Origin: Escherichia coli
GTDB taxonomy: Bacteria; Pseudomonadota; Gammaproteobacteria; Enterobacterales; Enterobacteriaceae
Direction: 5' to 3' (one strand)
Assembly: GCF_050320075.1 (NCBI RefSeq)
Contig: NZ_CP190018.1
DNA length: 64,000 nt
Shown: one piece after another, positions 39,201 to 42,200 of the stretch
How positions within the stretch are numbered: position 1 is the stretch's first letter
Layout of the letters: each line of letters opens with the position of its first letter
Program-made: the position numbers

Positions 39201-42200
39201 CTGAATCGCAGTCAGCGCGATGGTGTAGACGATATCGTCAACCAGTGCGCCACGGGACAGGTCGTTAACCGGCTTGCGCATACCCTGCAGCATCGGCCCG
39301 ATGGAGATCAGATCGGCAGAACGCTGTACTGCTTTGTAGGTGGTGTTACCGGTGTTCAGATCCGGGAAGATGAACACGGTAGCGCGACCTGCAACCGGAG
39401 AGTTCGGCGCTTTGGATTTCGCAACGTCAGCCATTACCGCAGCGTCGTACTGCAGCGGACCGTCGATCATCAGGTCAGGACGTTTTTCCTGCGCCAGACG
39501 AGTTGCTTCGCGAACTTTTTCTACGTCGCTACCAGCACCAGAAGTCCCGGTGGAGTAGGAGAGCATAGCAACGCGCGGTTCGATACCGAAGGCCGCAGCG
39601 GAATCAGCGGACTGAATCGCGATTTCTGCCAGCTGTTCTGCAGTCGGATCCGGGTTGATCGCACAGTCACCGTAAACGTAAACCTGTTCCGGCAGCAGCA
39701 TGAAGAACACGGAAGATACCAGGGAGCTGCCCGGTGCAGTTTTGATCAGCTGCAGCGGCGGACGGATGGTGTTTGCGGTAGTGTGAACAGCACCGGAAAC
39801 CAGACCATCAACTTCATCCTGTTCCAGCATCAGCGTACCGAGAACTACGTTATCTTCCAGCTGTTCGCGGGCAACGGTTTCGGTCATGCCTTTGTTCTTA
39901 CGCAGTTCGACCAGACGACCAACATAGCTTTCGCGAACCACTTCTGGATCAACGATTTCAATGCCTGCACCCAGTTCTACACCCTGAGACGCTGCAACAC
40001 GGTTGATCTCTGCCGGATTACCCAGCAGTACGCAAGTTGCGATACCACGTTCAGCACAGATAGCGGCTGCCTTAACGGTACGCGGTTCGTCACCTTCCGG
40101 CAGAACGATACGTTTGCCCGCTTTGCGCGCAAGTTCAGTCAGCTGATAACGGAACGCTGGCGGAGACAGACGACGGCTGCGCTCAGAAGTGGCAGTCAGA
40201 GAATCGATCCAGTCAGCGTTGATGTAGTTAGCAACGTATTCCTGAACTTTCTCGATACGCTCGTGATCGTCAACCGGAACTTCCAGGTTGAAGCTCTGCA
40301 GGCTCAGAGAAGTCTGCCAGGTGTTGGTGTTCACCATAAATACCGGCAGGCCGGTAGCGAAAGCACGTTCGCACAGTTTAGAAATGCGCGCGTCCATTTC
40401 GTAGCCGCCAGTCAGCAGCAGGGCACCGATTTCTACGCCGTTCATGGCAGCCAGGCACGCGGCAACCAGCACGTCAGGACGGTCTGCGGAAGTCACCAGC
40501 AGAGAACCGGCACGGAAGTGCTCCAGCATGTGTGGAATGCTGCGTGCGCAGAAAGTGACGGATTTAACGCGGCGAGTATTGATGTCGCCTTCGTTGATGA
40601 TGGTCGCATTCAGGTGGCGAGCCATATCGATCGCACGAGTCGCGATCAGGTCAAAGCTCCACGGCACAGCGCCGAGAACCGGCAGCGGGCTGGATTCTTG
40701 CAGCTTCGCCGGATCAACATTGTTTACTTTAGCTTTGGAAGAGTCGTCGAAAATCTCGGACAGATCCGGGCGAGTACGACCCTGTTCATCAACCGGTGCG
40801 TTCAGTTTGTTAACGATAACGCCGGTGATGTTGGTGTTTTTGGCACCGCCGAAGCTGTTGCGGGTCAGTTCGATACGCTCTTTCAGCTGTTCCGGGGTGT
40901 CAGTGCCCTGAGACATAACGAAGACGATTTCCGCATTCAGCGTTTTAGCGATTTCGTAGTTCAGAGACTGGGCAAACTGGTGCTTACGTGTCGGGACCAG
41001 ACCTTCAACCAGAACGACTTCAGCGTCTTTGGTGTTAGCGTGGTAGTTTGCGACGATCTCTTCCATCAGCACATCTTTCTGATTGCTGGAAAGCAGACCT
41101 TCAACGTAGCTCATTTTCAGCGGTTCAGCGGCCGTCGTGGTGGAAGAGTTAGCACGCACGATAGTCGTAGTCTGATCGGGCGCATCGCCACCGGTACGCG
41201 GCTGAGCGATAGGTTTGAAAACGCTCAGACGAACGCCTTTGCGTTCCATTGCACGGATCACGCCAAGGCTGACGCTGGTCAGACCGACGCTGGTTCCGGT
41301 AGGGATCAGCATAATAATACGGGACACGGTTTATCCTCTTTCGTTACCGCCGATTTGGCGGGTTACAAAACAGCACCGCCAGCTGAGCTGGCGGTGTGAA
41401 ATCAGGCAGTCAGGCGGCTCGCGTCTTGCGCGATAACCAGTTCTTCGTTGGTTGGGATAACCACCGCAGGACGGGTACCTTCTTTGTTGATGAAACCAGA
41501 TTTGCCGAAACGTGCAGCCAGGTTGCGTTCATGATCAACTTCAAAGCCCAGCACGCCCAGTTTGCCCAGAGACAGCTCACGAACCATCGCGGCATTTTCA
41601 CCGATACCACCGGTGAATACAACAGCGTCCAGACGACCATCCATCAGCGCAGTGTAGGCACCGATGTATTTCGCCAGGCGGTGGCAGTAAACGTCCATTG
41701 CGCGCTTCGCGTCTTCTTTCGTCGCGTAGTTGTCTTCAACATAGCGGCAGTCGCTGGTCACTTCGGTCAGACCCAGCAGGCCAGACTCTTTGGTCAGCAG
41801 TTTGTTGATTGCGTCAACGCTCATGCCCAGGGTGTCGTGCAGGTGGAAGATGATCGCCGGATCGATATCACCAGAACGGGTACCCATGACCAGACCTTCC
41901 AGCGGGGTCAGGCCCATAGAGGTGTCAACGCATTTACCGTTGCGGATAGCAGAAACGGAACCACCGTTGCCCAGGTGGCAGGTGATGATGTTCAGTTCTT
42001 CTACCGGTTTGTTCAGCATTTTTGCCGCTTCCTGGGTTACATAGAAGTGGCTGGTGCCGTGCGCGCCGTAACGACGGATGCCGTGCTCTTTGTACAGGTT
42101 GTACGGCAGGGCGTAGAGGTAAGACTCTTCCGGCATAGTCTGGTGGAACGCGGTGTCAAATACAGCAACGTTTTTGTCTTTCAGCTGTGGGAAAGATTTC

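Follow-up and report, generated by a model that had tools for sequence, protein, structure and literature searches.

Two conserved RNA hairpins between ackA and pta of Escherichia coli, the first a candidate leaky terminator

Results

The ackA-pta interval and its two hairpins

We analysed a 64,000-nucleotide stretch of Escherichia coli DNA from contig NZ_CP190018.1 (assembly GCF_050320075.1), referred to here as the window, and focused on the short interval between ackA, which encodes acetate kinase, and pta, which encodes phosphate acetyltransferase. Both genes lie on the minus strand. The ackA coding sequence occupies 41402-42604, with its UGA stop codon at 41402-41404, and pta occupies 39183-41327, with a GUG start codon at 41325-41327; both were identified from the list of open reading frames (ORFs) and from RefSeq annotation. 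The 801 bases around the site were 100% identical to E. coli chromosomes and matched 5,422 of 5,426 complete genomes at a coverage of at least 80%, and the annotation under this match places ackA and pta on either side of the interval. In MG1655, ackA is found at 2,413,470-2,414,672 and pta at 2,414,747-2,416,891, and window positions 41328-41401 are the 74-nt intergenic region at MG1655 2,414,673-2,414,746. It occurs as a single copy in 5,423 of the 5,426 E. coli genomes, and 5,140 of these have the identical sequence. RefSeq annotates no feature inside it, and a comparison with Rfam 15 returned only chance-level matches over the interval (NsiR1 at 16.8 bits with a gathering threshold of 39, and P9 at 15.5 bits with a threshold of 43; E > 7).

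Read on the minus strand, the order of elements is UGA, UUUCA, hairpin 1, CUGUUUUGUAAC, hairpin 2, UAACGAAAGAGGAUAAACC and GUG. The spacer after the ackA stop (41397-41401) is 5 nt long and reads UUUCA or UUCCA within Escherichia. The stem of hairpin 1 (41374-41396; CACCGCCAGC-UCA-GCUGGCGGUG) therefore begins 5 nt past the stop codon. It has 10 pairs, 8 of which are G-C, closes a 3-nt loop, folds at -18.9 kcal/mol and is followed by the tail CUGUUUUGU; its terminator-like character is apparent from the sequence, the fold, a terminator scan and covariation. The first-pass annotation had drawn a 9-bp hairpin at 41375-41397, so the hairpin itself is present, with coordinates displaced by one base and one pair missing. 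The 12-nt linker (41362-41373) carries an interrupted U-tract, which we recognized from the sequence, the terminator scan, the conservation of its U residues and its tail score; its UUUU at 41370-41367 is the short T-run that had been noted between the hairpins. Hairpin 2, previously placed at exactly the coordinates we find (41347-41361; CCGCC-AAAUC-GGCGG), has a 5-bp G-C stem within the pta leader and, like hairpin 1, was identified by sequence, fold and covariation. Its 3' end lies 19 nt upstream of the GUG. Those 19 nt form the A-rich remainder of the leader (41328-41346), recognized from its sequence and conservation, with the Shine-Dalgarno sequence GAGG at 41335-41338, 7 nt before the start codon.

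The 80-nt stretch containing both hairpins had a minimum free energy (MFE) of -35.8 kcal/mol, compared with -20.2 +/- 3.1 kcal/mol for 200 dinucleotide shuffles (z = -5.1), and none of the 200 shuffles folded as well. RNA folding had been proposed as a check on the two hairpins, and by this measure the fold exceeds chance; both stems also have covariation support, as described below. Perfect hairpins of at least 10 bp are rare in the window, with only seven in the whole 64 kb. A terminator scan of the 4.2 kb from 39000 to 43200 picked hairpin 1, and the sole other convincing match on the minus strand was the operon terminator at 39145-39117.

The MFE fold contained a further pairing. In every context tested, the U-run (UUUUGU) paired with ACGAAA just upstream of the pta Shine-Dalgarno sequence, and CU paired with the AG of AAGAGG. 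In Cedecea-type sequences the equivalent pairing of the U-run with the leader is GUUUUC with GAAAAC. This pairing could be selected, or it could be a mere by-product of a U-run lying near an A-rich leader. The pairs of this extended stem are almost invariant in orthologues, and covariation therefore cannot test them.

Hairpin 1 is conserved across Enterobacterales

We scanned for the C-terminus of AckA in one genome per species, which yielded 80 Enterobacterales loci, and took from each the sequence between the ackA stop and the pta start. The N-terminus of Pta was kept in 80 of 80 loci. A homologue of hairpin 1 was found 5-13 nt past the ackA stop in 76 of 81 Enterobacterales sequences, a count that includes the window and locus L075. 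The stem is CACCGCCAGC/GCUGGCGGUG in 44 loci and CUCCGUCAGC/GCUGACGGAG in Pantoea and Erwinia, with further variants UGCCGCAGC/GCUGCGGCA, ACUGCCAGC/GCUGGCAGU, UGCCCGCG/UGCGGGCA and ACCCCGCAGGC/GCCUGCGGGGU. Loop length varies from 3 to 6 nt. In an alignment of 62 distinct sequences, 98.4% of cells were standard-paired, and two-sided changes occurred at eight of the ten pairs (47 cells). None of 500 shuffles reached this alignment on any of five measures, and sliding the register by 1-3 columns lowered pairing to 24-63%.

The changes also indicate which molecule is conserved. Eight cells of the alignment contain U·G or G·U wobbles, for example CCGUCAGC/GCUGGCGG, which do not pair on the opposite strand or in duplex DNA, and so the selected object is the RNA of the sense strand. 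The 20-nt stem was identical to that of E. coli in 41 loci; at fourfold-degenerate sites in the flanking 200 codons, identity in these loci was no more than 48-91%, with a mean of 66%. In a set of eight Escherichia sequences that included divergent ones, just five columns of the 74-nt interval varied, and all five are unpaired: the spacer accounts for one, the hairpin 1 loop for three (every base of it) and the hairpin 2 loop for one, with none in the stems, the U-run or the ribosome-binding site. Downstream of the stem, three U residues of the tail were conserved in at least 90% of the 62 distinct sequences, including Pantoea and Erwinia, which are without hairpin 2. These comparisons show that selection maintains hairpin 1 as sense-strand RNA.

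Several loci carry insertions within the hairpin 1 loop. A repeat of about 125 nt lies there in Klebsiella oxytoca (L026:1670-1794) and also in locus L019, and 200 nt are inserted in L031. The repeat is dispersed in E. coli, at a median of eight places per genome with 80-92% identity. Its core, GAAUCCCCAGGAGC...GACUGGGGUGAGCG, resembles the consensus of an ERIC/IRU element. ERIC-like sequence was also found elsewhere in the intergenic region of L071, L076 and L039. In the predicted fold (z = -5.6), the insertion leaves the two hairpin 1 arms paired, one G·U included, below the long hairpin made by the repeat, and the U-run comes next.

Hairpin 2 is a separate stem of Enterobacteriaceae

In Enterobacteriaceae, a small stem always lies about 12 nt past hairpin 1 and about 19 nt before the pta start codon, with a loop of 3-8 nt. 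Its sequence has turned over extensively, the stems being CCGCC/GGCGG, CCGUC/GACGG, GCGCC/GGCGC, GCCAG/CUGGC, GUGAGCA/UGCUCGC, UGAGCC/GGCUCA and CACAAGC/GCUUGUG. In a second alignment, counted against this named structure, compensatory changes were found at four of five core pairs, even with the hairpin 2 rows that diverge most misaligned by MAFFT. RNAalifold gave no consensus structure for the downstream half of the interval, where the variable hairpin 2 is misaligned by MAFFT. Hairpin 2 is missing from Pantoea and Erwinia and was lost by deletion in one Phytobacter. The leader that follows it is invariant within Escherichia, and its AAGAGG is kept in every aligned sequence.

The stem has turned over with its pairing retained, and we regard hairpin 2 as an RNA stem under selection of its own within the Enterobacteriaceae pta leader. 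It is not followed by a U-tract and is thus not a second terminator. Its most likely, though unproven, role is structuring or stabilising the 5' part of the pta message beside the U-rich linker. Taken together, we conclude that both hairpins are real, evolutionarily conserved and under purifying selection as sense-strand RNA.

The U-tract after hairpin 1 is weak in E. coli

Hairpin 1 has the stem of an intrinsic terminator, being within about 5-14 bp, G-C-rich, with a loop of 3-8 nt, and located after a stop codon. Its tail is poorer. A simple terminator scan accepts CUGUUUUGU, which has six U residues in nine positions, but just one among the first three. We scored tails with a d'Aubenton-Carafa-style formula, and hairpin 1 of E. 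coli reached 1.66, compared with 4.14 for the terminator that follows pta. That terminator (39117-39145), found by the terminator scan, its tail score and the hairpin search, is a canonical intrinsic terminator that ends the operon, with 13 pairs and then UUUUAUUCUCU.

Orthologue tails differ in quality. In the clade of E. coli, Citrobacter and Enterobacter the U-tract starts with C and is interrupted, as in CUGUUUUGU. Tails of the UUGUUUU type scored 3.2-3.5, and tails of UUGUUUU or U5-6 together scored 3.2-4.2. In Rahnella, Rouxiella and Hafnia the homologous hairpin is followed directly by a canonical U5-6 tract and was called terminator-like. We rejected the idea that strong terminators accompany long intergenic regions with promoters of their own: terminator strength did not correlate with intergenic length (Spearman rho 0.03), and no promoter-like site was present in three long intergenic regions.

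Regulation and neighbouring features

Published work documents discoordinate regulation of the two genes: translation of ackA is repressed by the small RNA SdhX, and Pta does not change significantly (PMC6393394, PMC9438474). A promoter scan of the minus strand from 39000 to 43200 found none in the interval or in nearby ackA. Synonymous-site conservation over the last 130 ackA codons was unremarkable. At the other end of the gene, codons 1-12 (42569-42604, minus strand) had a synonymous-codon identity of 0.90-0.94, compared with 0.67 gene-wide, among 74 orthologues. These codons match the published SdhX pairing site at the translation start and were used as a positive control. Smaller rises in synonymous identity occur at codons 69-80 and 265-292.

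The layout of two hairpins recurs at the 3' end of pta. A 9-bp hairpin at 39150-39172, printed on the plus strand as AUCCGCAGC-GCAAA-GCUGCGGAU, comes just after the pta stop on the minus strand without a U-tract, and the canonical terminator at 39117-39145 follows it. Long plus-strand open frames run antisense to pta and ackA at 39129-41399 (756 aa) and 41396-42436 (346 aa), one of them ending between the two genes; both have the look of shadow ORFs in genes with strong codon bias.

Discussion

We propose, with moderate confidence, that hairpin 1 and its U-run form an intrinsic (Rho-independent) terminator that ends ackA, was inherited across Enterobacterales and has become leaky in the E. coli clade, where it would act as an attenuator inside the operon. 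Termination, its leakiness and any effect on the ratio of AckA to Pta are predictions from the sequence. If hairpin 1 terminates, the U-run of the linker would be the release site. Given the initial C and the interruption of the U-tract in the E. coli clade, hairpin 1 should halt only some polymerases, with most reading through into pta; leakiness is also required because pta is co-transcribed with ackA. Such an attenuator would lower transcription of pta from the ackA promoter relative to that of ackA, and an ackA mRNA that was terminated or processed here would be left with a protective 3' hairpin. Together with a pta-specific promoter, the site could allow the expression of the two enzymes, which form and break down acetyl-phosphate, to diverge. 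According to the literature, ackA and pta are uncoupled in vivo, and this site is a plausible cause. The stem begins just 5 nt past the stop codon, and judging from ribosome footprint sizes, a ribosome on the ackA stop should therefore cover the first bases of the 5' arm of hairpin 1.

Several observations weigh against termination at hairpin 1. About 10% of random 15-mers from the window reach the E. coli tail score of 1.66, so termination in E. coli itself could be negligible, and the conserved U residues would suit an RNase E site equally. The Term-seq tables of Adams 2021 (PMC7815308) list no 3' end in 2414673-2414746; because they also miss the strong terminator of pta itself, this is weak evidence. 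As cited in PMC6085430, Kakuda 1994 described ackA-pta and pta-only transcripts from northern data, and the account given there includes no ackA-only transcript, which argues against efficient termination as far as that account goes. A second, pta-specific promoter has also been reported, and if it lies inside ackA, its transcripts must pass hairpin 1 as well. The first-pass annotation had suggested a "leaky terminator or processing site", and this names the right class: it fits the sequence and the comparative evidence, with hairpin 1 and a U-run in 76 of 81 sequences, compensatory changes in the stem and a weak tail. Termination or cleavage at the site is itself putative.

The same architecture could serve to process or stabilise the message, with RNase E cutting the U-rich linker, hairpin 1 blocking 3' exonucleases on the ackA half, hairpin 2 structuring the new 5' end of pta, and the "pta-only" RNA being partly a product of processing. 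We regard this as a serious rival, though less likely than termination. RNase E prefers RN↓WUU, and the linker is a 12-nt U/A-rich single strand between two stable stems (CUGUUUUGUAAC) in which GU↓UUU fits that preference. Both stems are selected as RNA, the U-tract is poor for a terminator, pta-only but not ackA-only transcripts appear in the account of Kakuda 1994 mentioned above, and the lowering of AckA but not Pta by SdhX would be easy to obtain if the two halves decay independently. In distant orthologues, however, a canonical terminator tail occupies this position, and in Pantoea and Erwinia hairpin 1 and the U-run persist although hairpin 2 is missing, which makes termination the more economical choice of ancestral function. 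Cleavage of the linker would also leave about 8 unpaired nt 5' of hairpin 2, unlike a protective 5'-terminal stem, and the MFE fold pairs part of the linker with ACGAAA.

That last pairing would instead count in favour of translational control, in which the hairpins either hide the pta Shine-Dalgarno sequence until ribosomes finishing ackA open it, thereby coupling the genes, or insulate the A-rich ribosome-binding site. The predicted fold pairs the U-run with ACGAAA and CU with the AG of AAGAGG; in Cedecea, Pantoea and related loci, CUCU or CCUC after the stop pairs with GAGG in the MFE fold; and both the spacing from hairpin 2 to the start codon and the leader sequence are highly conserved. 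Yet U-runs and A-rich leaders pair by composition alone, and the extended-stem pairs almost never vary, so that covariation is silent on them. Across 66 orthologues, opening the Shine-Dalgarno sequence cost 4.0 kcal/mol, compared with 3.9 kcal/mol for dinucleotide shuffles (Wilcoxon p = 0.21). With opening energies equal to those of shuffles there is evidence for neither sequestration nor insulation; we rejected sequestration with translational coupling, and consider control of this kind unlikely overall. Least probable, to a degree that we give it hardly any weight, is a function of the palindromes in DNA, for instance as the operator of a dimeric regulator or as an intergenic repeat like REP/BIME elements. 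As DNA, hairpin 1 is indeed a perfect 10+10 palindrome, with a degree of conservation unusual for a site between genes, but its loop varies from 3 to 6 nt and tolerates a 125-nt repeat, and the stems change by compensatory pairs and by U·G wobbles that are mismatched in duplex DNA and on the other strand. The interval is also found just once in each of 5,423 genomes, and a search of the window that allowed three mismatches gave no second copy.

Two smaller candidates were rejected. A 10-codon ORF over the linker and hairpin 2 (GUG CUG UUU UGU AAC CCG CCA AAU CGG CGG UAA) has no Shine-Dalgarno sequence, and the loop lengths of orthologues shift its frame. An antiterminator formed by the right arm of hairpin 1 and the left arm of hairpin 2 (GGCGG with CCGCC) could form in E. 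coli, but would come too late, once polymerase is past the U-tract, and the pairing is lost where hairpin 2 differs.

Returning to leaky termination at hairpin 1, a more elaborate version would have the stop codon, hairpin 1, the weak U-tract and hairpin 2 work as a conditional attenuator. Read-through would be set by how far ribosomes completing ackA trail behind the polymerase, or by NusA/NusG or growth state, and the element would set the AckA:Pta ratio and acetyl-phosphate and contribute to the insulation of pta from SdhX. We offer this as speculation with a low chance of being correct. The ratio itself matters because acetyl-phosphate, which AckA and Pta produce and use up, serves as a global donor of phosphoryl and acetyl groups. 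If present, a conserved weak terminator or processing site here would add another ordinary means of uncoupling the two genes, and would be of practical relevance to engineering of the locus; it would not change the understanding of operons. The comparative result is likewise tidy and unsurprising: a stem kept by compensatory changes across a bacterial order, which survives the insertion of a repeat in its loop.

Internal terminators that are partly read through are common in E. coli operons, where 264 have been mapped, for example inside sdhCDAB-sucABCD (Conway et al. 2014, PMC4161252). The ackA-pta site resembles that one in having a G-C-rich stem-loop and a U-run between cistrons, a need for read-through into the downstream gene and a secondary promoter for the downstream part. 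It is a predicted terminator, however, and has a weaker U-tract than is typical. Intercistronic stem-loops of the malE-malF REP and pap operon type give the segments of an operon different mRNA stability. There too, stable hairpins flank a single-stranded A/U-rich segment between cistrons, and the upstream gene would keep a 3' hairpin after cleavage; unlike the malE-malF REP, the ackA-pta site is not a REP/BIME element and is not repeated in the genome, and its cleavage is only putative. A third comparison is with the terminator of pta (39117-39145): it shares strand and architecture with hairpin 1, and there too another hairpin, one lacking a U-tract, comes first (39150-39172). That terminator has 13 pairs followed directly by UUUUAUUCUCU and a tail score of 4.14, whereas hairpin 1 has 10 pairs, the tail CUGUUUUGU and a score of 1.66. 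The ackA-pta element, apparently uncurated as far as we have seen, is thus an ordinary intra-operon signal of a known kind in a well-studied operon.

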